From positions 1 through 64,000 of the forward strand of contig CDROCS010005437.1 of NCBI GenBank assembly GCA_977020255.1: a DNA stretch of 64,000 bases, given 5' to 3'. This document shows, piece by piece, positions 35,716 through 61,500 of this stretch. A model generated the notes under the pieces. The model ran no database searches. It saw only the letters and a list, made by a program, of their open reading frames with translations, and had not been told where the DNA came from. Position 1 is the first letter of the stretch. The number at the start of each line of letters is the position of its first letter. The position numbers and the translations under genes were made by a program. The stretch comes from Obrimoposthia wandeli. Its lineage: Eukaryota.

Positions 35716-38145
35716 CAAGGCTGGATTAATAGTCTCGTAGGCTCTCTAACCTTTTTAACTCGTCGACCCTTTATGACCTAATTATCTTATTATCGACCCA
35801 TTTAAGTTTAATGTAAAGATTAAATAATTTAATAATCAAAAAAAGTAACTGGTATGTCAATATTTATTTGTTACAATAAATCTCATTAATGAGATGGTTG
35901 TGGTTGATGAGCAGCGGCAAGACTATCAATATTAGGTTGAAAATTGGTAAGCTTAAGTCTTAAATCTCCACGGTTTTCCAGGTTCAATCTATTCCTCTGT
36001 TTTGTCAAAATGGCGTTAGCATGGCTAAAACCAGCTTCAACCATATACGACGTTGGGAATGCAAGTAAGAAAGGCTCAGCTGTAGCCCTGAGCTTGGGAT
36101 ACTTTGTAGCAATATTGATGTTTTTCCAATATTCACTTATGTTTCCTTTTTTAAATAAGACTTTAGCTTCGAGATCTACACTTTTCATAATCGTTTTCCT
36201 CACACAAATTTGCAAACAGTCGTGAATTGAGAGGAGAAGTTTTGATTTTATTAATTGATCTGATGCAGACTTTTAAAGCTTCATGTAGTTCTCCACTTAG
36301 TTTTTTAGCTACAAGATGTTGCCTGTGTAAGACACAGTGAACAGTGCGCACTGTAGGAACTTTCTCTTTGAGAAAGGCAGAAAATCCTCTATACCGGCCT
36401 ACCATAGCTGGTGCACCATTAGTAGCTACTGCACTAATATTTTCAAGAGTAATAAATAAGAAATATATTTAAAATATAAAATTTATTAGACCACCAGGGG
36501 TCGATATCGACCCCGTTGGGGACCCCTGCTCTAGACAATTGGAGAACTCATGTGTCTTAAAACCCGATATTATTATTGATTATATTTTAATCACTAAATA
36601 AATCTATAACAAATTAAAGAATAAATTATTGGATTGAAGGTTACTTTTGAAAATAAATGTATTTAACCATTTACTATTTGTAAACATTATATTCTAAAGG
36701 TTTCGTTTGAAATAATCAGCTCATAATGGCCGATGAATATAAAAGATAAATAAACTAGCTGAATGGGTACCATGTTCTGCTATCAATCTTAATTTAGTTG
36801 GAGTAGCTGCTGCAGAATGCTGTTCGGAGGCAGTTAATTCTTTTGGACTTTTACAATCGGTATATAACTTTTTCTTTACACCGCCACAAAGATGGTTAAA
36901 ATTAAAAGAAAGCATGAGAGATAAATCTTTAATTGTTCAAAGTTTATCACAGATGAGATGGTCAGCACGAAGTGATGCTGTAAAAGCATTTCATACGAAC
37001 TATTTTGAAATTCGCCAGACATTACTAGACATTGCTAACTGTGAGCATCAACCTCCAGCTGTTGCTCATTTGTCAAATTCGTTAGCTAAGAATTTTGATC
37101 ATCTTGAAACGATATTAACCCTCACTGTGCTATGTATTTAATACAGTACGTATTATCATCCTGCATTATCGGGTTTCCATGTCGCTCTAGGTTTTCATAT
37201 TGATTTTGTTTATAGACATTAAAATAACTTAGATAATACGTATGTCATCACCATGGAAATCGATGGGAAATCCCCTGTCTAAAAACGAGTTAACTCGGTT
37301 CCCGTCACTGTATGCGTATTTGTCGGGACCGAGTTATCTCGGTTCCCGCGTATTGAGTTGCATATGGAATGATTTGCTTGAAAATATTAACCTTGTAAAT
37401 AAATCGGTGCAACAGCTTGGTTTAGAAGTACGCACTATAATAAAATTATATGATGGTCTTATTTTCCATTTTATTGAAGTACGAAATAAATTTGGCGAGT
37501 TTGAAACCAAAGCAAAAGAACTGTCGTCATGGAACACAAAAATCCACGCAAAATACCCAGAAACATTTTTTTGAAGAAACTGAAATTTCCGAATAAATTC
37601 AAAGTGGAAATGAAAACACTTCGAGTTGCCTACACAACGTCTTCGATAGGATATGCCCAGTGATCATATGTCAATTAAAGCTCAATAGTTAGTAGCAGCT
37701 TACCCAACAGATTTTAAAGAGTTCTTTGTGAAAGAGCTCCATTTATTTTCAAAAATCTGTGACGTGAAAATGTTGGCTTCCGAAGTGATTACCAAACAAA
37801 TAAAAGAAAAATTAGTTACCAGATTCCCAAACGTTCACATCGCGTTGAGAATCTACTTGTCCGTAATTGGTTCAAATGAAGAAGCAGAATGATCATTCTC
37901 AAAACTTAAAATAATTAAGAACTATTTGCGTACGAGTATCGGACAAGGCAAATCATCATCACTGGCGCTACTTTCAATTGAAATAAATGTCTATTGAAAA
38001 TGTCTTTTGAAAATGTAATATTTGAATTTGCAAATAAAAATGTTAACAATAAAGGTTTATCATTATTTTTAAATTTCGTAGGCCCTTTAGTTTTCGTAAG
38101 CCCTAGGCAAAGTGCCTTCTTTGCCTTTAGGCTAATCCGGTATTG
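35716..38145 (+). mobile_element. hAT transposon (ZMYM1/Tip100-like), decayed
   Basis: 8-bp TSD ACTCTAGA at 35708-35715 and 38146-38153; imperfect TIRs CAAGGCTGGATTA / TAATCCGGTATTG; transposase fragments LNLVG, RWSARSDAVKA, SFSKLKIIKNYLRTS. Confidence 0.85.
35738..36528 (-). mobile_element. Buster/Charlie-type hAT, internally deleted, nested in the previous hAT
   Basis: End GTTGGGGACCCCTG followed by CTCTAGAC; ATNGAPAMVG, HCVLHRQHL, FPTSYMVEAGFS, DLRLKLTNFQPNI...QPSH. Other TIR is degraded. Confidence 0.8.
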
Positions 38146-38873
38146 ACTCTAGAGAAGAAATCCCTAAACATACCTATTTTAATTAGAGACGATTTTCAAG
38201 TTTCATTGTGATTGTATGACAACTCTCTGTTCCTAAAGTTAGTAAAGAAATCGAGCCATTTTAGTGTACACAGTTTCCTTTTAGTAACCTTTTGTCAAAT
38301 GGTAGTGTAATAAATATTATAAACAATAGTGACGAAGTGCGTTTCATCTCAGGAAAATTATTAAATCCATTTTGCGTGAGAGGTACCAAAATAAGAGTAA
38401 ACTGAATGATACGTAGGCAGAGACGCCAGCTACATCGATCATTTTGTGTGCTGTTATCAGAAAAATATATGGTGTGAACCAGAATGATATTCGTCCAATT
38501 TTTTGAACTAGTCATTGCCAGACTATTTATTAAATTGTACAAGTATTAGCCTAACTGACTAGAGATATATTCCAACAAAACACAACAACCGTTTTGGAGA
38601 TTTACAAAATGTATCTGCACAACCTACTACAACACATACTACTAAGCAATAAGCTAGATAAAACACTACCTTCAGACATGACAATAGGTGCTGTCGCTAC
38701 AGAACTCACGATTAGGGCCTCCCGTGGATGACTCTAGAGAACGATTTTATGAAACCGAAACGCCTATTTTCAACACAATACCGCTACAATGCTGATTGAT
38801 GAAAATCACAACGGTTGGTGATTGTTTCTAACACATTATTCCGCTACAAATAGGTCGGGTTCTCATTCGATTT

Positions 38874-41460
38874 AAATAGCCGACGTCTGATGAAACTGTA
38901 TCAACAGTAGCCAAATCTGTCATCAACTTATTCAACTCTTCCTCATCATAAACCCACTTAAAGTTGGCATGAGGTAGAGGTTGAGTAAGCGCCCACCCAT
39001 ACAAATTATTAATATCGATGTACAGAATCTCCGTGGATTAATTTTTGACAACATGATGTTTGTTGACAAAAGTCATTCCACCGCGTATACCATAATCATA
39101 CATTTGATACATCGCGGGATCTTGCAGTAACTCGATATGAATTTTAAGAGTGTTTATTGCTGTTGCCCATGAAAGACCAGATAACTAAAGAAATGCATGG
39201 GATCTAGCCCATCTTCTGCTAAAGATTTTACATGAAAGGACTCAAAAACATCAGCGAAAAGATAAATGTCTAACTTCATATAATAAAGCATATATTCTAA
39301 AGGATTTTGACAATTATTCTCTCAAAATGTACGGGCCTTACACCCTCAAATTCAGTAATGGGTGGGATTTCTGTAATATTTTGTAAATCAGCAAAGGTTT
39401 TCGCAAATTTATACGGAAAAATCCCCTAATAATTAACCAAAGTTAGGAACACTGACTGTGTAATTGGCCATGCATTTAAAGATGCCGTAACATTTTTAAA
39501 AGACCCGCTCAAAAACTGCAAAGAATTTATGAATCTTAAGCTGCAGAATTCAGTATATGCAGTTAAAGATAAATATTTCTCTGAAGTTTGAGGTATACAT
39601 GAAATTTCCTTTGAGATTATGAAACTCGATGAGAATGCGTGGTTTTTTAGGGAGATGACGGCCAAGATTACAAAGGTTGCACGCCACTCCCAAGTATCGC
39701 CCCGTAACATGATCGTGATCTCTGACTAACTTAGACTGGGTTCCACACAAATAACATAATCTACAAGAATTAAAATTAACCCAGTCTATGCCTGTCATGA
39801 TCATTGCTTGATGAGCATTGAGATCCTACCACGGTTTGACAATTGTTGTTCCTAATTCCTCTAATTTTAACATAAAATCTAAAATACAATTTGGACCGGA
39901 AAATTTATAATACTGGGTAATATTGGGGCCTAAGAATAGTAGTCCTGCCGAAGCCGGTAGGTGAATACTCTCATACTAGTCATGCAATGCTAAAATTGAC
40001 TCAAAATCTGCATACACCCTGAATTCCACGGGTATGCATTTTGCCCAATCCCTGAATTTTGAATCCTTATCCTTAGGCATGCTGTATAGCGTATTGTCAC
40101 CAGGATTCAGTGAAAATAATGTCAGATGTTTGCTGTAAGAGAGCTCGGATCGGAATCCATGCAAACATCTATGACACCACTTACACCTTATCCTAACCCG
40201 TAAGGCTCCATTATCTAAATTTAGAAGACGATCTAAACTGGGAATTGCAGCATAATGGAATTTTTTATTATGTTCGAGCAAAATTAAGTTGACCCGAGTC
40301 CCCTCATTTTTTTCTCCTATAAATTACATCTACAAAAGGATTTTAAAAATTTTCTTCATCTGTTACATTAACTGGGATATCAGTATTATATTTGAATACA
40401 TTAATACTCAAGTTATTAAGATGTTCAAATCTTGATATCGCAGTTAATTTAACAGGAAAATCTATTCCATGATACTGCAATTCATTTAAAAAAGGGGTAT
40501 ATTTACTGACACGATCTCTATGCTCAGTAATCCCTTTTGAGGATGGCCAACACGCTATACAGAAACCAAAGGTTATAACTGTTTAGTATGTTAACAATGG
40601 AACGTGAAAGTTGAAGACATCTAGGTGAAGGAATGTATGAACTCCCCAAAAGATATATCATGTCAGTGAACTTTGTTAGAACAACGATAACATTGTGAAT
40701 TCTAACTAGAGTCTATCCACTACTTAACTCGCTATAATAAGCAATTTTTTATCTATGTTTCTTCCAATTTCAGTTACAAAATTATCATAGAAAACAGTTG
40801 CTTTATGTGAAATTACCAAGTTTTAGTCTCCTCATTGACATTTTCAAACTGCTCTGTTGCGCAAAATTGAACCTTAGCATGTCCTAATTTAGTCACTTCT
40901 GATTTTAAAGACTTTCAATATTTGAATCTACACCTACGTTTAAAAATATTTCAATTCCTAATGGCACCTTAACTATAACGTATTTATTATTTAGGTGATA
41001 CTCTATAGTAGCACCGTTTTCCTACGTTTTTTGGGTGGGACCTTATTAAGAAATTGGCCTTGCCTCTTTCTTCCTACAGTCGCTGACAAACCTCCCCCTA
41101 ATTGAACGGGAAGACAACTATTTATATTAACAGTTGAGGCAATCGCAGCTGATGTGGAAGGTGCTGCTATTGGTGATGCTGCCGATGTTGAGGCAATTGC
41201 TGTTGATGTAGACGATGCTGCTGTAGTATATGCTACCGCAGATGATGAGACAGTAGATGCTGCATTTGAAGTAGCAGACATTGCCGACGAAGAAGCGGCT
41301 GTTGTAGAGGATGATGCTGCTGAAATAAATATATTTTAAAAATAAATATATATTTTTAAATTATTACCTCTAAGACGTGCAAACATCTATGTAGTCACTC
41401 ACGATGGGGGAGGCATAGCTATCGTAGCGGACGACGGCTGTATCACGGTATTTCCTGAAT
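38874..41460 (-). pseudogene. polB: pPolB of copy A2 with spliced Ala/Ser/Thr-rich N-terminal exons
   Basis: Intron-like GT-AG segments at about 41322-41370 and above 41458; A/S/T-rich exon leading to PPKKRR then ENGATIEY...KVQFCAT; same Exo and endonuclease VII-like motifs as A1; motif A (LYIDINNLYGWA); truncated at 38874. Confidence 0.85.
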
Positions 41461-42865
41461 AAAAAATTAAAAAATAAATATATATAATTACAATTTTAAA
41501 AAATAATCAGAAAAATAATAGTAATTTTTAATTTGCACTGTTGCGCAAAATTGAACCTTAGCCTGTCCTAATTTAGTCACTTCTGATTTTAAAAGACTTT
41601 CCATATTTGTATCTACACCTACGTTTAATAAAATTTGATTTCCTAATGGCACCTTAACTATAACATATTTATTATTTAAGTGATACTCTATAGTAGCACC
41701 GTTTTCTCTACGTTTGTAGAGGCTGCATTTGAGGTAGGAGCCACTCAATATCCAGTAGCTGATGGCCATCTTATAAAAAATATTATAAATAAAATTGTTT
41801 ATATTTAGTTTGGTTATGTAAAATATTTAAAATATAACACTATAAAAAATCCATAAAATCAAAAGAAAAAATTTTTTTTTCGAATTTTTAAGAAGAACCC
41901 TCTTTAGGTTTAATCGGGAGGATTTTCTTTCTTGCGGCTCAGCGATTTTCTTCCGTCTCCACACTTATTTTTTTCCTATTCAACCTTTCTATTCCAGTCC
42001 AGTATCCGACGTCGTTCTGCTAGCCGCCTGTCCTGAATCTCCACCCGACGATTCCACTCGGTCGCGACAGCAGCATATAAATTTAGATTGAGGACCCTCT
42101 TTCTTAAATCTCCTTTCTTCACATTTCTTTTTATATTGTATTCTATCTTCGTCACGAGACTTTGCATTTTAGAAAATTCTATTTTTGAACCTATTTATAT
42201 AAATCTGAAATATTTTTAATCCAATCACAGTCAATTAAATGATATTTTTTTATTTATCAAATTAGAGTTTATAATTTAATAAATCTATAACTAATCATTA
42301 CATTTATATATAAATAAACTTATATTTTTGAAATTAAAGAAGTTTAAAGAATTATATTATTCCTAATTAATCCAACCAACATTGAATAAGTTTTTTTTTT
42401 CAAATGAGACTATTTTTTAATAAACTTAAGATTGTATTTTAATATAACTAAATTTCGTAAATATATCTAAATTTTTAAGTTATTTTTAAAAGTTAAACTA
42501 AAAACATAACACGTAAAATTATTTTTTATAAATTATATTGTTACATAGCACGTAAAATTATTTTTTATAAATTATATTGTTTCTAAAACACTACACAAAG
42601 TCATCGTTGGGATCATCCTCATCGATATCCCTCCGACTGAGTGGTATAGGAGTAAGCGGCACTGGCTCCTTATACTTCTTTGGTCGCCCTGGCTTTTTTT
42701 TGGCTGAACCCGTTGCTGTGCAGCAATTGGCCTTCTCTGAGGTTTTGGCAGTTAGTTGCCGCAACTTTTTCGGAGGAGGTGCAGCCGATGTTGATGGCCC
42801 GGACGAAGAAGTTGTAGCCTTCCTCTTCCGCAGAGCTTTCTTCAATTTATCCTCCTTCTCACGCT

Positions 42866-43001
42866 ACACAATGAGTACTCAGTTCGTACTTCCATTTTTT
42901 CAAATCGGATTTTCCCGATGTCCCAGACACTCCCGTTGTCGCACCAGGCACAGGAAAATCCGATTTGAAAAAAGGAATTACGAACTGAGTACTCATTGTG
43001 T
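42866..43001. repeat. left terminal hairpin of family B
   Basis: Arms 42866-42915 and about 42953-43001 are reverse complements (about 50 bp, few mismatches) around a ~37-nt loop. Confidence 0.93.
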
Positions 43002-43138
43002 CGTAAAATTACAAAATTGCCAAATTACAAAATTTGGCAATTTTTCCATATTATTTAAATTTTGTAAAGTTTCCAAAATTTAAAAAATATATAAAAATTA
43101 TTTTTTTTACTAAAAAAGATAAATTAAATTTTTTAAAA

Positions 43139-45900
43139 ATGGCGAATCCCAATAATCTATTAGAAGAATGGAAAGCTATAATTAATGTATTACATTCTAC
43201 AGAATACATTTTTCCCAATAATTTATTTGAAGATACCTATAATCCTGTAACGCAAATTGATGATATAAACGAAATAAAATATTTAAATTCTCATTATTAT
43301 AAAAATCAAAAAGGAATTGTTTTTCAATATAAAATTAAACCATTTGATAACACAGAAGAAAATATTAGAACTTGTTTAAATTTTATACTAGAAGCAATAA
43401 CAAATCACGATGACAATTTTCGTGTTAAATTAACACCTATTCATTCAATAATTGAATTAAAATATGCCGTATTTCCTTTGACAACAAAAGAAAATGTTAC
43501 AGACCTGCTATATAGCATTTTAGAAAAAATATTACAGTCCGCTGAAGAATTAAGCATAGAAGAAATAGTCTTTGAATTTTTACTTATGCCCATTCCTCAT
43601 GGAAGTGGACGAAATTATAGTGGCACAACTTCTAAAGATATATTATTGCGTAATTTTTCAAAAAATTCAAAATAATGACACACTTTGCTTAGCTCGTGCA
43701 ATAGTAACAGCTTTAACCTATGATAACATTACTAATAAAAATTATCATAATTATTCCAGTAATGATAATAGAATAAGATATATTAGAAGAGGAGAATTTA
43801 TTCAACAAGAGTTAGCTATTAGAATCCACAATTTAGCTAAAGTAGAAATAAAACAAGAAGGTAATAATTTAGACGATTTAAAATTATTTGAAGATTTTTT
43901 AAAAGTAAGAATTGTTCAATATTCTCATAACAATAATAATTCAATAATATACAGAGGCAATGAAGAATATGAAAAACAAACTTTTATTTATTTAAATGAA
44001 GAAGATAAACATTATTCGGCTATAGCCAAAATAGCAGCATTTCTTCAATCAAGAAAATATTGCCATGATTGCTTAACAGGATTTCAAAATCAACATACAT
44101 GTAAAATAACAGAAACCACTCTTTTTAGGCACAAATCAACATGTGAAGAATGTGGCCAAGAATATTTTAGCAGCTATAAACAATAGTGTAATTTTAAAAC
44201 ATGTACCATATGCTATGAACTTTATGAACTCCTTTTAAGGATCACAATTGTTATATGAAAAATAATAATGGAGAATTTAAAATTAGTACAAAATATTTAT
44301 TTTATGATTTTGAATCAACACAAGAAAATGCAGGTTATCATGAAATGAATTATGCTGTAGCATACGACGCAGAAAGAAAAATATTTTATAAATTACAAAA
44401 TAATAAAATATTTAGCTTTAGAGTTCTTTATGAAAATATTGATAGTCACACAGAAAAGTTAGAAAATTACAAAGATAAAATAGAGTTAAAAAATAAATAT
44501 GAAAATCAAATAAAAGCTCTAAATGTCAAAATAAATACAGGTAATTATGATCATGAAGCACAAAAAAATGCTCTTGAAAGTGAAAGATTGAAAATACAAA
44601 CTCTAATAAATAATAATTACTTACTTTCAGAGGATGAAAATAAAGAATATCTAACATTATCAGATATAAATTATGCTCCTAATAAATGGAATTTAGAAGA
44701 AATTAATGTTGATAATATAGGTAACAAAGTTTCTATAGTAGACCACAACGTATATGATTATGACACTGATGAGGAAGAATGTAACAAAAACACACCATTA
44801 ATAGAAACTTTTTGTGAGTTTTTCATTACAAAAAAAATTTATTGCGCATAATTCTAGAGGATATGACAATCAGCCAATTTTGGGTTGGTTAGTTCAAAAT
44901 AAGATTCCTACAGAGAAAATAAACAATGGTAATAAAATTATGCACATGCATGTTAAACATTTTAATATTACTTTTATTGACTCTTTAAATTTTACAATCT
45001 GCCCTTTAAAAGCATTTCCAAAAACTTTTGGCTTTAAAGGTAACAAAGGAGAATTTCCGTATTATTTTAAGAAGTTTGTAGAAAAGGAAATAAAACAATG
45101 GACGTATTGTACAAAAGAACACAAGATAAAAAGAATAACATTATTAACTATTTTAAAGATAAAATGGAAAATGTTAATTATATTGAAATGTGGGAATGTG
45201 AATATGAAAAAAATATTTCAATAAATCCTGAGTTTAAAAATTTAAAAATTGATTGTTCTTTAGAAAAATTAAAACCAAAAGATTCTTTTTACGGTGGCAG
45301 AACAGAACCCATAATGTTATACTGGAATAAAGATAATACACATCTTCAAGAAGAACAAGAATTTACCAAAGGCAATAAAGTTAGATATGTTGATTTTGTT
45401 TCTTTATACCCAACAGAAAATAAATATGACAAATATCCTACAAAACATCATATTAAAATCTTTAATGCTTCTGTGGAATTTTAGGTGAATTAACAGAAGA
45501 AATATCAGATGAATACGGACCAGATTCTTACATTACAGAATTTGTTGCACCTGCTCCAAAAGATTATCATATAAAATTATGGAGCTCAAAAGACCAAAAA
45601 ATTATTTCAAAAGGCAAAACAAAAGGTTTTGTTATTAAAAATATTGAAACAGATAAAATTACAATGGACAAGAAAATAAAAATGATAAAGAATAATTCCA
45701 ACAATCCTTTTAATCAAAATACTCAGGAAAATTATGAAACTATTGAGTGTTGCAAATTTAAATTAACAGGAGATAGTTATAAAATTTTCAATAGAATTCA
45801 AACATTGAGCGAAATAAAGATGTATGGCTTTGATTTTAATAAGAGACGAATAGAATACTTAGAAAATGGAAATGTAATAACTTTTCCATTTGGATATTAA
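43139..45900 (+). pseudogene. polB: protein-primed DNA polymerase B (family B), fragmented
   Basis: LCLARAIV, FYDFEST (Exo I), AHNSRGYD (Exo II), FIDSLNF, EMWECEY, FYGGRTE, YVDFVSLYP (motif A), LGELTEE...ITEFVAPAPKDY; motifs B and C absent. Confidence 0.92.
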
Positions 45901-46005
45901 AAGTTTAGATTTTATAATTTTATAAAATTTGAACATATTAGGAAAATATTTTTTCCTATTTTAAAATTATAACAGTTTTTTATAAATATAAAAAAATTGT
46001 TTTAT

Positions 46006-46809
46006 TCATTCTTTTGCTTCTAATTCTTTTACTCTCTTCATTAAAAAATCTATATTCTTTTCGAGTTCTGAATTTTTCATATTCTTATTCTTATTCTTAT
46101 TCTTATTCTTAGTATTTATAACTGTACCTTTAACACTATTATTCTCATATTCGATCTTTTTTCTCTTATGTTCTTGAGACATTGTTTCTTTATTTCTTTC
46201 CTTAATTTCACATATTTTATTTTTTACTTCTCTAAGAATTTCCTTTGACATTTCCATTTCATCGTTACTTATTTCATTATCTTTCAAACAATTCTGATGA
46301 AATAGAAATAATTTATTTTTACCTTCTTCAAGTGCATGAATTAATTTTTGATACTTCATCTTATTTCTTTTAAACAAACTAAAATTCATAATCTGCTGCA
46401 TCAAAGTACTACCTATAGGTGTTAATGCTAAAGTTATAGCTGGAAGAGCTACAATAGAAATTCCAGCGGTTACTAATCCACTGATAATTATACCTCCTAT
46501 TCCACAAATAGCTGTAAAACTATAATTTGTATATTTCACTATAGCATCAGCTTTGCACCATTTCTTATGTATTTTTTTATAATGTGAAATTTTATCAGTT
46601 AGAAAAATAAGATCATTTTTAAAATTTTCAATTTTCAATTTATTTACAGCTTTTTTATATTCTAAAGTTTCAATATCTGACAATGGCTTTATAGAAAAAG
46701 TATCATAATTATCATAATTATTCATATAAGCAACAGAACCAGAATTTTCATTCAAATTAGGATAAATATTTTGAATATTTTGAATTTCTGAATTTTCCAA
46801 ATCTTCCAT
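46006..46809 (-). CDS. coiled-coil protein with hydrophobic hairpin (putative membrane-active protein)
   Basis: Intact 267-aa ORF; segment FTAICGIGGIIISGLVTAGISIVALPAITLAL flanked by basic coiled coils. Confidence 0.55.
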   Translation of the reverse strand: MEDLENSEIQNIQNIYPNLNENSGSVAYMNNYDNYDTFSIKPLSDIETLEYKKAVNKLKIENFKNDLIFLTDKISHYKKIHKKWCKADAIVKYTNYSFTAICGIGGIIISGLVTAGISIVALPAITLALTPIGSTLMQQIMNFSLFKRNKMKYQKLIHALEEGKNKLFLFHQNCLKDNEISNDEMEMSKEILREVKNKICEIKERNKETMSQEHKRKKIEYENNSVKGTVINTKNKNKNKNKNMKNSELEKNIDFLMKRVKELEAKE

Positions 46810-46812
46810 TTT

Positions 46813-48276
46813 TTAGTAATAAATTTTATTTTTTATAATTTTTTGAGATACTACCTTATCTAAATCTTCGTTTAATTCTTCATTTAATTCTTCATTTATT
46901 TTTTTATAACTCATTTCATCATCATCTTCATCTGCATCGCCTTCATCGCCCGACTTAATTTCTCTTTTTACCTTTAAAGCATTTCTAAATTTAATTTCGC
47001 TAGACCAAATTGTTTGTCTTACAAACATACTATTAAATTGAGGATTTAAAACTTCAAAACAAAGACAATCTAAAATATTTCCTGATGCAAATTTTCCACC
47101 TAAAACCAATTTTCCAAATTTAAAATTTTTATCAACTTTAAAGCTATGCCATTTAGATAACTCTGTCTTAAATGATATTACATCACCTTTTTTAAAAAAT
47201 TGTATAAAGTTTAAATATTTCTTAAAACGCCTTTCTTTAAATAATTCTTTATATAATTCTTTATATAAATATAAATATGAGTCACATTCCTTATGATATC
47301 CTATTATTTTTGTTTGCTGTATATTTTCAGTAATTCCTTCAATACCCGAAATAAATACTCCATCGACTTCACCTTCATCTCTTTCAAATTCATCTCTTTC
47401 ACATAATATATAAAAATGAAAATCTCCATTAAATTCATAATTTGAAACAAATCGCGAATCATAGTCTAAATAAAAACATTTATTATTTCTAGTATCTTTT
47501 TTTATAACTGGAGATCCTATAACTTGCATTCCTTTTCCACTCAATTCTTGAAAAAATGATTCTGAATTTGTACCTCCAAATGGAAGCCTAGAAGATATCC
47601 AAAATTTTAAACTAATCAATTTTTCATTTTCTGCCTTCTTGAAAGAATTATGATAACTTAAAGTAAGTTCACTTATAGAATTAAAATACTCATTTTGGAA
47701 TGATCTTACAATAGATAAATATACTTTTTTATTTCTATCATTTTCTCTTTCTAATTCTGAAATCTTTTTATTTAAAATGGTAATTTTATCCTTATCAAGT
47801 TTTTCAATTTCTGTAGTTATAAATTTTTTAATATCTAAAATTTGTTCATTTGTATATTTTTTTTGTTCTGATAAATCTTTATCTGTATTATTTTTAATAG
47901 CTACATTTTTATCAATTATAAAATTTTCTATATATTTTTTATTAGCTGAATGTTGATCCTCTATATTAGTTTTAATTTCATTAATGTGTTTAGTTGTATA
48001 ATTTTCCATGTAAATTTTATTAACAGCATCTTTATCATTTTTAGGATCTTGTTCAATTTCTAATTTTTCAATTTTATCACCACTTTCATTTACATATTTA
48101 TTATCTAAATTTTTAATTTCGTCATTAAATCTTTTAATCTCCTCATTAACATTATTCACTTGCCTCTCTAAATGTCTAACTAATTTAATTTCTGTTTGAT
48201 TTAAAATATCTTCTAAATCTACATTTCCAGAATCTAAAGTTCCTCCTGCAAAATTCATAGGATAATAAGAACTCAT
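46813..48276 (-). CDS. fiber/spike-like structural protein candidate
   Basis: Intact 487-aa ORF next to the penton gene; N-terminal coiled coil, YVNESGD...DPKNDKDAVNKIYMEN fiber-type repeat, globular C-terminus. Confidence 0.45.
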   Translation of the reverse strand: MSSYYPMNFAGGTLDSGNVDLEDILNQTEIKLVRHLERQVNNVNEEIKRFNDEIKNLDNKYVNESGDKIEKLEIEQDPKNDKDAVNKIYMENYTTKHINEIKTNIEDQHSANKKYIENFIIDKNVAIKNNTDKDLSEQKKYTNEQILDIKKFITTEIEKLDKDKITILNKKISELERENDRNKKVYLSIVRSFQNEYFNSISELTLSYHNSFKKAENEKLISLKFWISSRLPFGGTNSESFFQELSGKGMQVIGSPVIKKDTRNNKCFYLDYDSRFVSNYEFNGDFHFYILCERDEFERDEGEVDGVFISGIEGITENIQQTKIIGYHKECDSYLYLYKELYKELFKERRFKKYLNFIQFFKKGDVISFKTELSKWHSFKVDKNFKFGKLVLGGKFASGNILDCLCFEVLNPQFNSMFVRQTIWSSEIKFRNALKVKREIKSGDEGDADEDDDEMSYKKINEELNEELNEDLDKVVSQKIIKNKIYY

Positions 48277-48285
48277 ATATAATTC

Positions 48286-49191: not shown

Positions 49192-49668
49192 TCATAAAAG
49201 CAAAGGACTTAGGTCCTTATAAATTTCTTGAATTATATTTTCTATACTAGAATTTTCCACATTCGAGAGTCTATATATAACATACAAGCATAAAATGCCA
49301 CAAATTTTAGTTCCATTAGGTTGTACTTGTAAAGTATTAAAAACATAATCAGGTGATAAAAATGCTTCTACTTCTTTTGTGGGTCCAATTCCATAAGAAT
49401 CAAAATAAATATTTCTATCTATCATACATACCCAATGACTTCCTTTTTTATCTGAATTTTGAATATTTATAATGACATTGTGTTTTTTAGTATTTTGAAT
49501 CTTTTCAAGTTCATCATCCATCAGTATTTTAATATTTAAGCTCTTATAGCCAAGAAGCTTTGCTTCGTCAAGATAATTTGCATAATCTTTTAAATCAAAA
49601 TTTGTTTTAGTATTTATACCAAATGTTTTTAAAAAGTCAAGAACTGTGTATATCAAAATTGAACTCAT
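49192..49668 (-). CDS. adenain-like cysteine maturation protease
   Basis: GSHWV (His), YFDSYG (Asp), LQVQ (Gln), ICGILC (Cys) in correct order; intact ORF. Confidence 0.9.
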   Translation of the reverse strand: MSSILIYTVLDFLKTFGINTKTNFDLKDYANYLDEAKLLGYKSLNIKILMDDELEKIQNTKKHNVIINIQNSDKKGSHWVCMIDRNIYFDSYGIGPTKEVEAFLSPDYVFNTLQVQPNGTKICGILCLYVIYRLSNVENSSIENIIQEIYKDLSPLLL

Positions 49669-50485: not shown

Positions 50486-51312
50486 TTAATTATCTTTATA
50501 AGGCTTTAAATATATCCCCAATCCATGTTTACCTTCTTTTACTTTACATATACATCCTTTCTTTAAACTTTTACATGTTTGTTTCATTTGTGATTTTTTT
50601 TCAGTTGATAAATTTTCATCTTGATCTATAAGATTTTTCATAAAATCATTCACTCCTCTACCTTGATGGGGGTTAAGATATAGGCCCTTACCTACTGACT
50701 TTACTAATGGTACAGTTTTTACACCTTTTTCTTTTAACTGTCTCAACTCTTCAGTTAATATTTCAGCTTTTAATTTTTAATTTTTAATTACTTCATTATC
50801 TCGTCCAATAGCTCTAGCACCTTGAACAGCACTAAATATTCCTGTAGCTATTGGAGCCAAACTTCCTACTGCATTTCCAACTTCTCCAATTTTACTTAAG
50901 AAAGGTGATAATGAATCAAATGAAATAAATCCTCCATTTTTTGAAGCTTTTTCTTTCAACTGTCTGAATTCTTCTTGTAGCTTTTTAGTTTCAAGTGTAG
51001 TTTTGGCAGCTTCTAAATTTATCTTTTTTTCTCTGCATCATTTTTTGCACCTTCTTTTGCCTTTTGAACAGCTGTTGCAACTCCACCTGCTACACCACCT
51101 GCTGCTCCAAGTGCTGCAGCTATTACAAGCATTAAAGCTAAAAGAGGAAAAAATCTACCTTCTTTCGTTTCAAGTTGTTGAGCTTCATGTTCTTTTACAT
51201 GTTTCTTAATATTTTTTCCAATCCAATACTTTTTATCATTAATTGTAACAGATTTTGTTTTATTAGAGTCCACAAGATCTCTTAATTTTTCCTCAGTTAC
51301 ATTTGTGGCCAT
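50486..51312 (-). pseudogene. cluster of small basic core-like ORFs with GG-F/GxG motifs
   Basis: EGRFFPLLALMLVIAAALGAAGGVAGGVATAV; KNGGFISF; GKGLYLNP and GLGIYLKPY. Probably one or two genes broken by frameshifts. Confidence 0.55.
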
Positions 51313-51351
51313 TATATTTTTTATTATTTTTAAATTTTAAAAATATAAAAA

Positions 51352-52139
51352 ATGGCAGTTTTACCAATATGGAATCAGGACAAAAGTATTTTTAAAAATG
51401 AAATATTTCCATCGAATTTTAGACTTCTAATTATAGGATCTTCTGGTTGTGGTAAAAATGTATTGCTTTTAAAAATGTTACTTACACCAGATTTTATAGA
51501 TTATGATAATCTTATTTTCTATTCAACAACCTTAAATCAAAAAGAACTACAAATTGTAAAAGAAGGTTTTGAAAATGGTTTAACTAAAAAGGCCATACTT
51601 AATATATTTGAAAATCAAGATAAATTTCCAAGTGAGGTAACGGCAGCAAGTGATATTGTAGAATATTATAAGAAAAACATTATAAAATCTAAAATGGAAA
51701 ATAAAGATAAATGTGAATATGTGTCAGAAGATTCTAGAATCAATATGATATTTTCCAACAAACCCGAGGATATTTTACATTGTGATAAACTTCCTAAAAG
51801 TAAAAAAATCTTATTATTTTTGATGATGTTGTAAATCTTAAAAATCAAGAAATTCAAAAATCTTATTTTACACGAGGAAGACATAATAATTGTAATGTTA
51901 TTTATATTTCTCAAAATTATTATGGCTTAGATAAAAATTCTATAAGAAATAATTCTAACTGTTTTATATTTTTTAAGCTTAATAAGAGAGATAGGGACAT
52001 GGTTTACAATGATCTTTTTTCAAATGTTGAGCCGGATAAATTTATGTTTGATCAATTTTCTATAAATCATTGGAAAGATAAGTATACTTATATTTATTTA
52101 GATAGAGAAAAGGAAGAAATGATAGAAGAATTGTTTTAA
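51352..52139 (+). pseudogene. A32/FtsK-like packaging ATPase (family B), frameshifted at Walker B
   Basis: LLIIGSSGCGKN, then ILLF/FDDVV across a frameshift, TRGRHNNCNVIYISQNY, IRNNSN. Confidence 0.9.
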
Positions 52140-53571: not shown

Positions 53572-53940
53572 ATGCCTGGAGATTTTATTGAATTGGTTAA
53601 AAAAGAAGTAAATGAATCATTGGTTGAATATGATGCTTCAAATCAAGCAACAAAAGGAGTGGTTGGTAGAAAGTTTTTAGTTCAAAATAAAGTTTTATCT
53701 AAAGCTATTCTAATTATGGGTGATACAATTGGAGAAATGGATGAGGAAATGGAATAGAAAGATAACAAAATTAGTTATTTGGAAAATGAAATTGGCGTAT
53801 CAGATGAGGAAGTTGTTAATAAAATGATGAAATTAAAGCGATACAATTTAAGTGATGTTAATAGAAATGAAAGAACTTTCAATCGACTTTGTAAAAATAT
53901 AATTAAACATGACCAAATTGAAAATTAAGAAATGAATGAT
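53572..53940 (+). pseudogene. tandem paralog of the 52887 ORF
   Basis: EYDAS...GRKFLVQNKVLSKAILIM vs EYDAL...GKKNLIQNEILSTAVLKM; same TTAAATTTAA(A/T)TTTTAAAAATG upstream context; premature stop. Confidence 0.6.
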
Positions 53941-55252
53941 TTATGAATATATTTTATAAGAATGCGTAAAATGATAATTAATAAAGTTTTTTTTTTGCAC
54001 AATTGAGTTCGCATTCTCTTGATTATTCTTTCATTTATTTCTCTAACTAAATTAGGATTTTCACTTGCTTCTTTTGGAGTAACTTTAATTGAACTATGTT
54101 TTGTATTATTGTAATCAGTAACAATTTTTTGCAATAAATCATTATTCCATTTTGAGTTTCCTACTGCAGTAAAATATTTCCACATTTTATCTTTTAAAGT
54201 TTTTATAAATCTTTCAGCAAAAATTGCTTTTCCTTCATTTTCTGTATGGTACAATTTTATATCATTTTCTTGTAAAAATTCATTGAAATATTTGGAACGA
54301 ATTCCAGACTCTTTATCAAACCAAATATAATTAGGAACTCGAGTAGATTCCTCAAATATATTTTCAAATGCTTCTCTTAAACTTTCTTGTTTTTTATCTG
54401 TCATGGGAATAGCCCAACCATATCTAGTGTATAAGTCTATAACGACTAAGATATATCGTTGTCCCTCAGCGGACTTATTAGGCTTATTGCAATGTCTGAA
54501 GACCATGTATGATCTTTGTCATAAACTTGAACTTTTAGATATTTTTTAGGTTTTTGATATTGATGATGTAATTCATTTGATAGTTGAATTTGTTCACTTG
54601 TTGGTTCTTTTATTTTTACAGTTTCAGAAATTTCTTTTGCTTCGGGATTTTCATATAAATTTTTAATTGCTTCAGTTTTAGCAGTTCTTGGAAGGCTACT
54701 GGCTCCAATCACACCTGCTCCTAAGGCTATCTTTCCTTTCATAATTAATTTTATTAATGCTCTTTCTACTTTTTCTCTAGTTGTTGGATTATTAATTTCA
54801 TTTAGGTCATGCATTAAATTTACATCTGCTACTTGTCTATCTCTTATATTTTCATTTCTATAAGCAATGTCATGTTTTAAAGCAGATGCATCAACTCTAT
54901 TTATGGGCTCTTCTCCTGGTTTAGGTTTGTCATTTTCATCAAGTCTAATATCAAGTCTTGTTCCTGGACCTGTATAACTATGACTTGGTAAATGTTTTTC
55001 ACCCTCATATTTTTCCCAGGGGAATTTAGGAAGAAATTTAGCAGTTAAATGTTGAAGATCGCCACCAGAAAATTCATGAGTAGTAGATTTTTTAAAATTC
55101 TTGGCTAGTAGATTTTTCTTAGTTTTTAAGTGATTAAAGTTAAATAAATGTTTTTTACTATTATTGTGCTCAGATCTATGATGTGCAACTGTGTCACAGT
55201 GACAAATGTCACATCGCCAATATCTACTGTTGTTTTTAAAAATATAGGACAT
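53925..55252 (-). pseudogene. int: zinc finger - parvovirus-type PLA2 - RVE integrase ORF (one frameshift)
   Basis: CDICH...H...H; YTGPGT...DASALKHDIAY (PLA2); open frame into LSNELH...WSSDI; frameshift at about 54490, then RYILVVIDLYTRYGWA, WFDKES, AERFIKTLK. Confidence 0.88.
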
Positions 55253-55309
55253 TGTAAATTTATAATTTTACTTGCTTTTTTATAAATAAAAATATTGATT
55301 TTATTTTTA

Positions 55310-56610
55310 TGCAGTATCTCCTCTAACGTTCTCAAGTAGACTAATTTTACCTCCATTCAATTTCATTTCAATTTTCTTTTCTTCTAGAACTAAACAATAT
55401 ACTTAGCTTAAAGCTTTTCCGAATCTTTTGTAACATGTAAAGTTACATCAACATTATTAATAGCCAAACGATCATCATTATCTGAGACATCTATGCAAAA
55501 TATTGAATACAAATTTCTAAAATCTATCAAACTTAGTTGTGGTTGAGTTTTAAAAGCCTTACAAGTATTTACATATTCTTGATAAGGAAATAGATTTTCA
55601 TTTTCTTTAATATTAAATTCCATTCTATTGATAGGATAGTAAACATTATTCAATTGAACTTGGATTGATTTAATACAGTTTGTTGTAACAGCGCCAGTAG
55701 TAGTAGTATTTGCAGTCGACTGTATAAAAAGTGAATTGTTTTTCACTTCAGAAATTTATGTGTCTTTAAATCCAACTAGAACAAATCTAGGCTTATAAGC
55801 CAAATTTGCTAGCTTTACTGAAAATGTTGAGCCTGTTCCCATGCTAAGCATTGTACAAATTCTATTTAAATAATCAACATGTATAGGTTTATTTGTGTTT
55901 AGTCTTTCAAGAAGTTTTATTTCAGCTCTAGGATTTAGAGTCCATTCAGGAATATGGAGTTCAATTGTAGAAAGTTTGAGTTTAGCATCGGTTGCGGCTG
56001 CTCCAAAATAAATTAGTTTATCGTCAACAGATCTATTACAAATAAATTCTATAAAAACATTATGAATTATTCTATTATAATTTTGAAGAAAACCAAAAAG
56101 ATGTTTAAGCTCAAAAACTCCCTCAAATTTATTTTTATTATAGAGATCTTTTCTAAGCGCATAACTTTTATTTGTGTTAGTTGTATCACCTTTCTTTGTA
56201 TCTGTCATTTCTCCATATTCATTTTTATAATCATTATCTGTAAGAATGAAGTTTAGCATGGAGGAATAAATTCCTGGATTGAGTACATTTTCTACTTCTG
56301 TTGATCCAATTTTAAGTCTCATATTTGAAAAAAGACTAGGAAAGAAATTATTTTCAAGAGTAATATTATCAGTATCTTCAATGCCCTCTAACTCAATTTT
56401 ATAATAAAGTTCAGCATTACAAATATCTAGAGGATTTGAAGTTTGAAGAGATTGAAATACAATATCGCCGGATTTATTAAGATTTGAAATTGATCCAGAT
56501 GTTGGACAAATTTTGAGAGTATCATTTTTCTTTATATCATGAGAAAAATGTTTATTGTGATAAAGATTTATCTTAGATTTATCTGTAATGTCTATATTCG
56601 CACTTTCCAT
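55310..56610 (-). pseudogene. double jelly-roll major capsid protein (hexon-like), frameshifted
   Basis: NLNKSGDIVF, LENNFFPSLFSNMRLKIGSTEVENVLNPG, GFLQNY; continues in 55408-55746 (YPINR...YSIFCIDVS). Confidence 0.88.
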
Positions 56611-57133
56611 TTTTAAAAAATAAAAATAAGAATTTTTAATATTTTCATTATATAAAATATCAGTTAATATTCTATTGCAACTTATAGTATTTTGTGTAGC
56701 TAAATAATTGGTATTGGCTTGTGGATCACCTAAAGAGGCAGATGTAATTGCTGTTTTTTTTAATATCTACATTTTTTTAAAAAGTGATTTTGTAAATGAA
56801 AAATTGTAAAATCTGCGGCAACTATAGCTTTACTTTTGTTACTAGTCTCTAGAATAGATTTTGTAAATGAAAAAATGGTAAAGCGCCGCTTTACTTTTGA
56901 TACTAAAAATTGACTAATTCAAAATATTAAGTCAAAATATATATTATTAAAAGTTTAATTCATTACAAGCTTCAGATATAAGTTTGAAGTTTCTTTGTAC
57001 AAAATGCAAAGATAAAGAAGTTGTTAAAAGGCGTGGATGATTAACACATAAATCATGCAATTTTATCAAAAGACCAATATATTGTTTTGTATAAATAAAA
57101 CCATTTGCCTTTAAAATTTTTATATAATTTTTT

Positions 57134-58007
57134 TTATCTAAATTTTTTATATTGAAAAAAATATTTCCTAATATAGAATAAAAATAAAGACTTTTTATTT
57201 AAAGTTTTAATTAATATATTTAATCTTTTAATTGAATATAAACATGATTTAATGTTATCACATTTAAAATTACCTGTATCGTCTTGAAAATGTTCTTCTA
57301 TTACAGAATTTTGAATAGTTGCAATCATATCTTTCACAGTTTTCTGCTGTTTCTGTATTCTTTCAACTGGCTCAATTGTAGTAATAAAAACGCCATCATC
57401 GTCATTGTTTGCGTTTATGCCTTCCATTTCTTGTGATAATCTGGTGCTTGGCGACTGCAAAAAATCCTCGGTTTTCTCGAGTAAACATTGGAACTCCGCA
57501 CGTTCTTTATCGCAGATGGTTTCTGAGAGAACAAGTATTTCTTTCATTTTTCTAATAAATTCCATTGTGAAAGATAATTAAGTGTGATCGATATTAAATA
57601 ATTCGTAGTTGATATGTGAGTGTCAATATATGCAAATGAACTGATGTTTTATTAACATTGAATATTGAATGTCAACTATTAAAAATAAACTATCATTAAA
57701 AAGCACATCAGTATATTATTGATTTTTTCATTTGTGCTGGCATGAGTAAATAATTCTAGTATAAAATTTAAACAAGTTCTAATATTTTCTTCTGTGTTAT
57801 CAAATGGTTTAATTTTATATTTAAAAACACTTCCTTTTTGATTTTTATAATAATGAGAATTTAAATATTTTATTTCGTTTATATCATCAATTTGCGTTAC
57901 AGGATTATAGGTATCTTCAAATAAATTATTGGGAAAATGTATTCTGTAGATGGCAATACATTAATTATAGCTTTCCATTCTTCTAATAGATTATTGGGAT
58001 TCGCCAT
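57134..58007 (-). pseudogene. right-end gene sharing its first ~85 codons with pPolB via the TIR
   Basis: ATG at 58007 gives MANPNNLLEEWKAIINV; 1-nt deletion; homology ends at 57754; the 143-aa ORF 57134-57565 lies downstream. Confidence 0.45.
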
Positions 58008-58203
58008 TTTTAAAAAATTAATTTATCTTTTTTAGTAAAAAAAATAATTTTTATATATTTTTTAAATTTTGGAAAATTTACAAAATTTAAAAAATATGGA
58101 AAAATTGCCAAATTTTAAAATCGCGACTGTGAGGGGAACAAAAATCAAAACAAAAATCGCAGATATATATTCTCTTCTCAACTTCCCAATATAGTCGTGT
58201 GCA

Positions 58204-58250
58204 AAAATTGGCCTACCTCAGGCGCTTCGCGCCTGAGATAGGCCAATTTT
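58204..58250. other. 22-bp-stem hairpin with GCGAAGC triloop on the minus strand
   Basis: AAAATTGGCCTA-C-CTCAGGCGC-TTC-GCGCCTGAG-A-TAGGCCAATTTT, one mismatch. Confidence 0.9.
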
Positions 58251-58352
58251 AGTGAAAATATATTTTTTCAGTCCGACGCGTTGTTCGTACCTCTGTATAT
58301 AATAGTGTTAAGTATCGCTACATAATAAATAAATCAATTTTTTAATTTTACG

Positions 58353-58511
58353 ACACAGTGAGTACTCAGTTCGTAATTCCTTTTTTCAAATCGGATTTTC
58401 CTGTTCCTGGTGCGACAACGGGAGTGCCGGGCACGACCAGTGGGAGCGTCTAGGAAATCGGGAAAATCCGATTTTGAAAAAATGGAAGTACGAACTGAGT
58501 ACTCATTGTGT
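58353..58511. repeat. right terminal hairpin of family B
   Basis: Arms 58353-58401 and about 58461-58511 are complementary; the loop carries about 22 nt more than the left end. Confidence 0.93.
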
Positions 58512-61500
58512 CACGCTGAAGCTGGCGTGAGACAGCATCTTGCTGCCCTCGCGAATCCAGTATCCGCCAGGAATTCGTCTAATCCAGCTTCATCCAAGGC
58601 CCTCTTCAAGTTCTGGCTGGTGTTTGGACGAGGATAAGCCAAATTTTGGCTGATGCTTAATGGAGCCAGTGCAGTTTCCTGCAGGCGTCGTTGACTGGGA
58701 GGCAGACTAATCTCGATCGGAGAGACTGGTATCCTCTCGTACAAAATTGGCCCGTTGTCCACTGGAGATTGGAGAATATCCTGCCGACCAATCACCGCCT
58801 CAGAAGAATTGAGCATTGTGGTGCGACATTTTCTCGAGCACTTTGTCTTCCGCACCTCTGCTTGCTTCGTCCGTCTCTGCAGGAAAGGAAAGATTTCTCT
58901 CCATGTCTCCTCCAATATCTGGACTGGTTCCTGTAAAAAACTTCAATAAAATTTAAACATATAAATTATTTACCTCAATGACCGGCAGGTTAGCCTGTTT
59001 TACCAACTTGGCCTTCTTCCTGTGGACCGTCTGGGTTTTGACCCGATGACGTCGCGGTTTCCTAACCGCCGTTTGCTTCCTATCCACCGGTTGAATAGGC
59101 GTCGCTTCTTCGAGAAAAATCTCCATCTATGTGAATTATTAAATTTAATATCTAATTTAAAATAATTTACCGTGATATTATCTGGATACGCTAGGTATCG
59201 GAACTCACTCCATGGCAGCTCCTGGCTGCATTGAGTTGCCAAGTATTGTGATTCTTTCAGCCTCTCGACCGTGGTCACTGACAGTGTTATATGCAGTTGA
59301 AGTTTCTGAAAATGAAATTAAAAAAACATTTGAAATAAATTAAGTCTAATCATTCGTTGTCTTTATTCTCCGAACTGCTCGCATCGAAGATTGCAGCCTT
59401 CTGAATGGTTCAGTCGCCGTATTGTCTGTTGTCGGAGTTAGAGGAAGCCTCGTTGTCGTTCAATTCTGTCACTATTGACTCGTTTGTGGCTGGGGCTCCG
59501 ATACTTGGCTGGATCCATTCGTCTCAAATGGAGTCAAATCCTCATCTTGATCCGACGGTACCCCATCACTGAATAGCTCCTCAACAGAGTCCGGTGCGAG
59601 GACTATCTCCGGCTGAGTCAGCGGGAACAATTTCTAGGGGCGTTTGGTTGCCGCCTTGAAATTGTCAAAAAGATTGGATCTCCTTGCTGCTACTGCCAAA
59701 GTTGCTGGACGAGCAGTTTCTGTATTCTACCGGGGAGTACAGTCTTCCCAATTCTCAATTGAATCCTGACTTGTCAGGTCGATATACTGGGATCTCTCAC
59801 CCATTGGTTCTTCTGTCAGAGTTGTGCTAGCCAATGATGCTTATTCTTCCAACAGCTCCGCTCTTGCTGCTGCTTCTTCGCTAAGTAAATCAATGTACTG
59901 CGACGGTGGTGATTTTCTCTGCTGTACTGGAGACAGATTCCCATACAGTTGAACTTCCATCTCTTCATCTAAGTCGACATTATTGTAGAAAGGCATTCTG
60001 TTGATTTTATATACACAAACATCAGACTAACCCTCCTTTATCATCCAATGAGAGCGTCTTATTTAAATAATTTATTTGAAAATCCATAAGCTTTTCTCAA
60101 GTTTTTACTACGTTTGAATGCGAGAATGTCATTGGATAAAAAATTATTAGAAAATTTTACTTCGAAAATTTTGTTGGCTGAGTTCAATGAGAGTGAATTA
60201 TTAAAATAATTTATAGTTTTTGTCTAAGTATGTCCCAATAATTTATTTAAAAGATGAGTTAAAAATAGACTATATGAATTCGTAATTTATAGTGATATGA
60301 CACCATATATACATGTGTAGTTGTAATAGGGAGAGGGGGTATGAGTAGATGAATAAAGTAAATGAAAAATACTGTAGCGCCCGGAGGGCTCGAATTGTGG
60401 TTGCCCCGAGGAGCATATTGTGGCAGAGGGAGAGGCCCCAAAGGGGGAGGGTGCGGCAGAGGCCGTTTGTTGCTTTTTTAAAAATTATTTTCAAAATTTC
60501 AATCCACACACATACACAAAATTTTACTCCTCACACATGCACGATTTTAAAGGACAGAAGTAGACCCCTCAAGGGGGAAGGGGATGGGGTGGATTAGACC
60601 AGACACATCCACCTACTTCAGGCCTATAGTTTAAACTACACAGACCATACAAAGGGCCGTACAAATAGATACAGACAACCTCAACAAACTTGAAAGTGAT
60701 CAATGAAGAAATCAGGAACAAATAACCAATGATTCTACTTGCGAACCAATGTAAACTGGTACCAAACATTGATAACGCATCACGATATGAACTGAGAACA
60801 CAGAAATTGAACCCAAATACTAATACAATTAAACTTACACGATTGGTAAGCGATAAAAATTACATAAATGTGAAGACCGACAGAAATAATTCGAAACCAA
60901 TGAGAATTGGTATACTCAGGATGAAGCACCAAGAAGAAAGAGAAGTCATCAGACACATTGCACAACAAAATATATTACAAGAAGACGAAGAGATCGTCGT
61001 CATGTTTGAAAGAACACAACCAACTGATGTGGCAAAATAAGTTATTTTGAAAGACGCATTAACAAAAGAATTCTTGTGTGAACTTAAAGTGTCATATTTT
61101 GATGGAAACACATTAGTAGCGGAACTTCATAAAAATTAAAATGTGTTTACGACTGAGAAAGTAATCGTAGAAATCTCATTAACACCAAACATAATTGTAT
61201 GGCAGAACTATGATAGTACTGAAGTAGGACTAGTCAGTCAGTAGGAGAAAGAACTGACTGGTGGTCATATACTTCATGGAACACCAAAAACTCAGACAAA
61301 AATATTATGATGTAATACTGGTATTGCATAACACAGGAAAAAAAAAAAGAAGTTTTGTACAATAAATTGACTTGTAAACATAATATATTTTTGCATATTT
61401 TCAGTTTAATATGTTGTAAGTTATTCGAACTTGTGTACTTGTACAAAATTTGTAAATATTTCAATAATTAAAAGCGATATAAATGTTAATCATCAAATAA

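Follow-up and report, generated by a model that had tools for sequence, protein, structure and literature searches.

The 64,000-nucleotide stretch of the Obrimoposthia wandeli genome analyzed here (contig CDROCS010005437.1, hereafter the window) contains a Polinton with a terminal-protein-like domain in its polymerase and a long self-complementary hairpin at each end, which raises the question of what fold-back ends do in an element predicted to prime its replication with a protein. A sequence-only reading of the window had suggested that these ends may support hairpin priming of the parvoviral kind or a hybrid mechanism, or may present four integrase sites instead of two. To our knowledge, neither the exit of a Polinton from a chromosome nor the onset of its protein-primed replication has ever been observed. 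The pairing, variation, orientation and insertion sites of the ends were analyzed in the window and across the host genome (1.35 Gb searched).

The element and its boundaries

The Polinton/Maverick spans 15.6 kb (42866-58511) and is bordered on both sides by the 6-bp target duplication CACGCT, which adjoins the outer tips of both terminal palindromes (Table 1). The public sequencing data consisted of the assembled contigs of four runs from one sample; in the contigs of one run, an uninterrupted host repeat departs from the window at position 42865 and continues like the right flank; thus, the element interrupts a common host repeat exactly there. Among the 15 joints listed of a total of 27, none was strand-changing, and three of the runs barely cover the hairpin, so that this absence carries no weight. 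The left and right terminal inverted repeats (TIRs) show 14 mismatches over 526 aligned bases. The right TIR alone contains some 210 additional nt (58122-58334), within which a short GC-rich palindrome lies near 58213-58250, and a strongly skewed 9-bp tandem repeat within the element (52970-53565) generates spurious repetitive frames.

Judged by its predicted genes, the element is a Polinton/Maverick with a PLA2X-type virion module, combining a PolB, an rve integrase, TIRs with a 6-bp duplication, a double-jelly-roll (DJR) capsid protein, an ATPase, and both a D1 and a viral OTU (vOTU) domain. The protein clusters nearest to its proteins are mostly from invertebrate animals. Known Polintons/Mavericks (adintoviruses), as described in the available portions of the reports on group I (PMC10328495) and on the PLA2X module (PMC8502044), share the TIRs and the 6-bp duplication, together with the genes for a terminal-protein, OTU and PolB polymerase, rve integrase, ATPase, DJR capsid, and PLA2-like and X proteins. 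Unlike in those elements, the tips here read ACACA rather than AGT, and each tip is an asymmetric palindrome of 130-180 nt.

Table 1. Features of the element in the window, with coordinates, strand and supporting details.
Feature	Position	Strand	Details
Target-site duplication, left copy	42860..42865	.	CACGCT; empty site in contigs of related host repeats
Left terminal inverted repeat	42866..43393	+	Includes the 5' end of the polymerase gene
Left terminal palindrome	42866..43001	+	Outer arm 42866-42915, loop 42916-42952, inner arm 42953-43001
Polymerase N-terminal domain D1, terminal-protein-like	43139..43672	+	Ser at the column after helix 2
Viral OTU protease domain of the polymerase	43569..44186	+	Catalytic Cys and His present
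Rest of the protein-primed PolB	44228..45900	+	Several frames, two large deletions; part of the VSR-like insert; PF03175 E 3e-10 and tblastn against a sister copy
Probable adenain-like protease	49192..49668	-	Suggested by position and by His/Cys motifs read from the sequence; no match in Pfam
Protein X-like core protein	51019..51336	-	PF05829 E 3e-4, below cut-off
Packaging ATPase, two frames	51349..52139	+	PF04665 E 0.002; E 2e-8 in a sister copy
PLA2-like domain and rve integrase, two frames	53925..55267	-	PF00665 E 4e-9, PF08398 E 9e-8; one frame in a sister copy
Double-jelly-roll major capsid protein, interrupted	55408..56766	-	PF21738 E 1e-16
Right terminal inverted repeat	57754..58511	-	Extra stretch of about 210 nt (58122-58334)
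Right terminal palindrome, 159 nt	58353..58511	-	Polarity as left: outer arm at the tip
Target-site duplication, right copy	58512..58517	.	Identical 6 bases to the left copy

Terminal hairpins of the window copy

The first 136 nt of the element had been read as folding back into a stem of about 50 bp around a loop of about 37 nt, and the last 159 nt as doing likewise; pairing and folding energies bore out both descriptions. In the left palindrome, positions 1-50 pair with positions 88-136 across a 37-nt loop, and the stem is built from a perfect 23-bp tip stem (42866-42888/42979-43001), a small bubble at positions 24-28 that is opened by a C·T mismatch (42889/42978), and a perfect 21-bp stem. 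The right palindrome is the left unit inverted, with a loop 22-23 nt longer and a single G·T pair close to the tip (ACACAGTGAG). Predicted DNA folding energies of the ends ranged from -48 to -56 kcal/mol, where shuffled sequences averaged -12 to -17 (z-scores -10.6 to -15.4), with 0 of 150 dinucleotide shuffles falling below -30. As had also been proposed, the 3' terminus pairs internally, giving each palindrome a base-paired 3' end. The palindrome TGAGTACTCA, which had been assigned to each arm, is indeed present once in each of the four hairpin arms and nowhere else in the window; as a feature of the family it did not hold, being present in 6 of 48 hairpins, although its central GTAC is found in 43 of 48 outer arms.

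Survey of the family in the host genome

The exact two-arm pattern was found at 39 places in the genome and at none in a reversed control. A one-arm pattern gave 109 matches (100 of them listed) compared with 2 in the reversed control, and most of these were decayed or truncated hairpins, with a few unrelated sequences. Complete hairpins could be paired at 56 of the fetched loci; removal of 8 duplicated insertions left 48 non-redundant hairpins of 83-180 nt. Fold-back ends are thus a trait of the family in this genome and not a peculiarity of the window copy, as the sequence-only reading had asked to be checked. Because the search pattern presupposes the tip sequence, the survey covers ends that resemble it and misses more divergent ones. 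Loop length across copies steps by about 22 nt (hairpins of 136, 158-159 and 179-180 nt) through repeats of a loop motif.

Scanning viral contigs outside the source genome with the hairpin pattern gave no matches, nor did scans of viral contigs for related loci turn up a relative. Two metagenome matches to the pattern were attributed to chance, one lying in a simple repeat and the other in a bacterial-looking gene region. Several loci of unusual structure were recorded in the host genome. A 312-bp element (C1153:377538-377849) has 30-bp inverted repeats that begin like the family tip and host-like DNA on both sides, and a target duplication looked for in its flanks was not seen. A decayed hairpin at C1239:177480-177640 has neither the subterminal motif on either side nor a target duplication, and is possibly a truncated or solo end. 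In old copies at C397:269640-269909 and C1981:262890-263170, tandem second partial hairpins lie within the TIR.

Covariation between the hairpin arms

Stem positions 1-8, 11-13 and 20-23 are nearly invariant across the hairpins. Positions 9 and 14-19 vary freely, yet they are paired in 42-48 of the 48 hairpins, where 16-30 would be expected, and among the different variants at positions 14-19, eighteen pair perfectly. These changes were placed on a tree calculated from the polymerase DNA that adjoins the hairpin, which is present for 30 of the 48 ends and missing for the other 18. At positions 9 and 14-19, the 50 outer-arm and 52 inner-arm changes on this tree amount to 58 joint changes, of which 44 are coincident, in agreement with the compensatory stem changes for which the earlier reading had proposed to look. 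The coincident fraction was 0.91 for true partners and 0.35 (maximum 0.75) for non-partners. Positions 14-19 changed 6-9 times each, compared with a mean of 3.8 over 285 polymerase coding columns. Altogether, 79 cells were changed on both sides, a number reached in 0 of 500 shuffles, and one-sided G·T states were rare. The inner stem also covaries. Alignment A3 leaves out 20 of the 48 hairpins.

The combination of fast, two-sided change with few one-sided G·T states points to one-step copying from arm to arm in DNA, and not to slow compensation in RNA; a role for an RNA structure was set aside because the changes are two-sided and G·U states are few. Five ends, belonging to 4 insertions with different sequences at positions 14-19, have a mismatch at position 22 in common, which suggests that positions adjacent to the bubble escape correction. 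As read from these sequences, the covariation says that the arms probably pair with or template each other at some point of the life cycle. Homogenization of the arms through conversion between duplex repeats, in which no functional hairpin takes part, could also produce likeness of this kind.

Asymmetry, orientation and insertion sites

At position 24, the outer-arm C stands opposite a T in 46 of 48 hairpins, and positions 24, 25 and 27 are mostly unpaired. The polarity of the loop was forward in 39 hairpins, reverse in none and undecided in 9. Had the ends replicated as in AAV, flip and flop orientations would be expected, as the sequence-only reading had predicted; instead, flipped ends numbered 0 among 47 host-flanked hairpins, all integrated copies, with sides assigned from the subterminal DNA. 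Two hairpins with an A at outer position 24 retain the outer-type context and a forward loop. An automatic host/interior score misclassified AT-rich flanks, and calls were checked against the subterminal motif. Candidates for flipped ends from a loose pattern were normal outer arms or unrelated; the one at C1016, for instance, is an outer arm that adjoins its target duplication. Targeted searches for an outer-type arm beside subterminal DNA returned only the hairpin on contig C430, the rest being normal outer arms or unrelated. These results rule out AAV-style flip/flop for integrated copies. They do not refute a hybrid form of hairpin replication, since parvovirus left ends also keep a bubble and a single orientation.

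Target duplications were found at the outer tips of 6 elements on single contigs and of 1 pair across contigs, the latter of which could be due to chance. The idea that the inner ACACA/TGTGT copies act as second integrase sites, so that an element would present four integrase ends, finds support in the invariant tip sequence that the inner arm also retains. This invariance follows from copying between the arms, all 7 target-duplication pairs lie at outer arms, and among the 48 hairpins there was neither a copy ending or inserted at the inner site nor a solo hairpin with a target duplication. We consider four integrase ends very improbable, and for integrated copies the idea is already largely refuted.

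The hairpin at C430:203027-203280 has element DNA on both sides and is the sole interior-hairpin-interior junction among the 48. Beyond its outer tip, 117 nt repeat the subterminal region of this hairpin in mirror orientation, differing from it by 2 substitutions and two gaps. Next come fragments of the capsid and protease of another Polinton family, the whole lying in a rearranged cluster of Polinton pieces. Run-on synthesis from a folded 3' end would leave such a pattern, as would recombination between arms, and the junction may also be a chromosomal repair event. At C2261:266159-266844, the left flank recurs in inverted form after a right end, and beyond it lies a second partial hairpin that bears the true target duplication.

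Polymerase, terminal-protein-like domain and VSR-like insert

The N-terminal 320 residues of the polymerase were modeled from a sister copy with a 77-sequence alignment (pLDDT 79), whereas folding from the single sequence gave a pLDDT of 34. The best viral matches of the D1-OTU model were adintovirus and mavirus polymerases. The OTU domain matched OTU structures with Z up to 11.5 (rmsd 3.2, 138 aligned residues). Over residues 57-154, D1 resembles little-finger chains of Y-family polymerases with Z 5.4-6.0, and a match of about 6 falls within the range of common folds. Additionally, the order of strands and helices in the D1 model is that given for the terminal protein in the available text of PMC11161782, which places the linking residue at the column after helix 2. 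The residue at this column is Ser in the window copy, as it is in 57 of 77 aligned homologues and 26 of 32 genomic stretches, some of which overlap; the other 6 stretches, the folded copy included, differ there. The OTU Cys is present in all 77 homologue rows and the His in 62, and both are found in 21 of 21 genomic stretches. D1 is best described as a terminal-protein-like domain, its identity being weaker than that of the OTU domain. Retention of protein priming is predicted from the terminal-protein-like and OTU domains together.

An exhaustive protein search returned 206 relatives, and two word-index protein searches found nothing. The best PDB match of the polymerase profile was phi29 polymerase (E 8e-7). 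The VSR-like insert carries a DG..EFxGCxxHGC motif conserved in 17 of 17 aligned polymerases, and its profile matched chains of the Vsr mismatch endonuclease weakly (E 0.17-0.23); Vsr was not detected by Pfam, NCBIfam, PHROGs or a single-sequence PDB search. No HUH Rep/NS1 was found by Pfam among 24 ORFs, or by NCBIfam and PHROGs among the unassigned ORFs, several of which stayed without an assignment.

These observations bear on a hybrid rolling hairpin, in which the folded 3' end would prime synthesis, a head-to-head dimer would form, and a nuclease would nick only the arm marked by the mismatch, so that a single orientation would persist, as it does at the left end of minute virus of mice. 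The hairpin is flush with the 3' tip, and the single orientation, the position-24 mismatch and the C430 junction would all fit. With no HUH Rep detected, the nickase might, rather tentatively, be the VSR-like domain in the polymerase, for which the insert motif and the weak Vsr profile matches speak, or the integrase. Asymmetric resolution of parvovirus junctions (available text of PMC1185569) and the hairpin-priming model proposed for protist virophages (available text of 10.64898/2026.07.28.741278) lend the scheme further support. However, the VSR insert, located between exonuclease and palm, marks all group I Mavericks according to the portion of PMC10328495 available and is present in all 17 aligned polymerases, and is thus not tied to hairpins. 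The terminal-protein Ser and the OTU catalytic residues are kept, the junction is found in just 1 of 48 hairpins and lies within a rearranged nest of Polinton fragments, and a second family has a fold-back that cannot self-prime. We regard the hybrid, the strongest of the rival readings, as possible, if rather unlikely. Of the earlier suggestion of hairpin or hybrid priming, the single fold-back junction and the asymmetry like that of a parvovirus left end stood, and the lack of flip/flop, the failure to detect a HUH Rep and the retained terminal-protein and OTU residues spoke against it.

Other Polinton families in the genome

A second family, with AGTAG ends and an Endonuclease VII-type polymerase (PF02945 E 3e-6, a junction resolvase family), folds back over about 275 nt, beginning at nt 8-11. 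The last 7 nt were unpaired in 30 of the 30 best copies, which had 93-108 matched bases; these copies were chosen by similarity, and their orientation is therefore no fair test. Since this fold-back starts at nt 8, the 3' end cannot self-prime. Some two-sided changes were also seen in it. At C2184:37318-63277, a 26-kb Polinton of the second family lies inside the inner arm of a hairpin of the window family (family B) and has duplicated AGTACT.

Family A is more abundant than family B, and the long fold-back was absent from 14 of 14 of its ends (scores of 20-30 versus 81-129), which indicates that a fold-back is dispensable for Polintons generally. Remains of family A occupy 28470-40394 of the window, with the Endonuclease VII-type polymerase in an inverted duplicate, and are interrupted near 35886-37663 by an insertion that we take from its sequence motifs to be hAT-like. 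Within the same region, an AGTAG-type end lies at 34060-34362 on the minus strand, and the 14 related ends are those that lack a long fold-back. Fold-backs are thus lineage-specific, and at least one kind cannot self-prime.

Comparison of the families bears on two further explanations. The palindrome could be an excision signal that extrudes as a cruciform, the junction at the host-element border being cut and the freed ends filled by the polymerase. The palindrome starts at the first base of the element, and the second hairpin-ended family has an Endonuclease VII-type domain, as does family A, which carries that domain with no long fold-back. Long loops (about 35-80 nt) and bubbles, as found here, disfavor cruciform extrusion from duplex DNA, and solo hairpin footprints with a target duplication numbered 0 of 48. 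An excision signal would fill a gap, as the route by which integrated Polintons regain free ends lacks explanation and the removal of the terminal protein before integration is called unclear (available text of PMC11161782), but we hold it quite unlikely.

Alternatively, the hairpin could be a functionless by-product, left by a past template switch that copied the tip inward in mirror image, with the arms since kept alike by quasi-palindrome correction. Fast change in both arms requires merely a copying mechanism, family A thrives with no fold-back, and accidental annealing is given as an alternative in the available text of 10.64898/2026.07.28.741278. Neutral correction, however, should erase the bubble or allow the inner arm to decay, and subfamilies with polymerase N-termini down to about 55% identical to that of the window still share the geometry, bubble, loop motifs and polarity. 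A by-product therefore seems to us distinctly improbable.

Comparison with known systems

The statements in this section refer to the portions of the cited sources that were available, except for 10.1101/2023.08.22.554363. Palindromes lie in the TIRs beside the target duplication in Halocafeteria seosinensis virophages and in PLV subtype 4 (10.64898/2026.07.28.741278), which share with family B this position and the rve integrase, and hairpin priming was proposed there. Those palindromes are about 52 nt long and occur preferentially with non-pPolB replicases, in contrast to the terminal-protein-bearing pPolB element described here, and the section of that report on termini holds no analysis of covariation, bubble or orientation. 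Parvovirus termini (the left end of MVM/LuIII and the AAV ITR) share an imperfect terminal palindrome with a paired 3' end. The left end of MVM has an asymmetric bubble, one orientation and asymmetric resolution (PMC1185569), the first two of which are also seen in family B ends. Unlike parvoviruses, family B has no detected HUH Rep/NS1 and no AAV flip/flop, and is an integrating dsDNA element with a terminal-protein polymerase.

In the archetypal telomeres of Streptomyces (Tap/Tpg), fold-back palindromes serve as template and truncated tips are repaired (PMC5449611). These telomeres likewise involve terminal-protein priming on a folded 3' end, and differ in being bacterial and in having an internal origin with end patching, several short palindromes and a separate primase. 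Bidnaviruses share with family B a Polinton-type pPolB and GT/AC dinucleotide repeats at the tips, the latter also noted for a wasp Polinton (PMC4061559); unlike family B ends, the bidnavirus repeats do not, according to the same paper, fold into hairpins of the parvoviral kind.

The word 'hairpin' is absent from PMC8502044 and from 10.1101/2023.08.22.554363, and PMC11296320, PMC12747079 and 10.1101/2022.07.28.501842 held nothing on terminal hairpins of Polintons. A literature search for such hairpins in animal pPolB Polintons, in which most subscription papers and Repbase entries were not searchable, found no report. For terminal palindromes and a hairpin-priming model, the earlier report concerns protist virophages and a single PLV subtype, most of them with no pPolB. 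The evolutionary evidence on fold-back ends in a terminal-protein-bearing Polinton is new here.

A proposed role for the fold-back ends

The reading that we favor, and to which we give about an even chance, is that replication, predicted to be protein-primed, starts at a fold-back origin in which each arm serves as template for the other. Following strand-displacement synthesis, the 3' end would pair with the inner arm rather than await a 15-kb panhandle, and the folded displaced strand would supply a duplex origin close at hand as well as a reserve template. A racket model was reportedly put forward by Kapitonov and Jurka in 2006. The fusion of terminal protein and polymerase would prime at the 3'-TGTGT tip, and an ACACA repeat suits sliding-back initiation. 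Copying or mismatch repair within the fold-back would keep the arms alike and could restore tips lost at excision, with positions in or beside the bubble escaping this arm-to-arm correction. The bubble and loop would mark the outer arm as sole origin and integrase end, and run-on extension from the folded 3' end would be an occasional side path, as perhaps at C430. A precedent is provided by the Streptomyces telomeres, where terminal-protein priming and fold-back repair coexist in the available account (PMC5449611).

Against protein priming on a fold-back origin stands the fact that a paired 3' end beside a single-stranded template is a ready primer, and nothing was found that stops run-on. 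Additionally, all of the evidence comes from dead integrated copies, from which flipped or closed ends might have been screened out by the integrase.

A fuller hybrid cycle, which we likewise think rather unlikely, would combine hairpin-primed copying with resolution of one arm by the mismatch-endonuclease-like domain of the polymerase, guided by the C·T/G·A mismatch, and with terminal-protein priming that resets the ends. If true, it would assign a role to the VSR and HNH inserts found in Polinton polymerases and account for the way in which free ends are recovered from an integrated copy; it would also be the strategy of a parvovirus left end achieved with no HUH Rep. The three families in one genome, with a flush hairpin, a recessed hairpin and none, are built-in controls. 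The ends of family B hold a natural record in their free stem positions that change in both arms, their fixed mismatch and their fixed direction, and they define a small DNA substrate with which protein priming, self-priming and mismatch-directed nicking could be distinguished in vitro.
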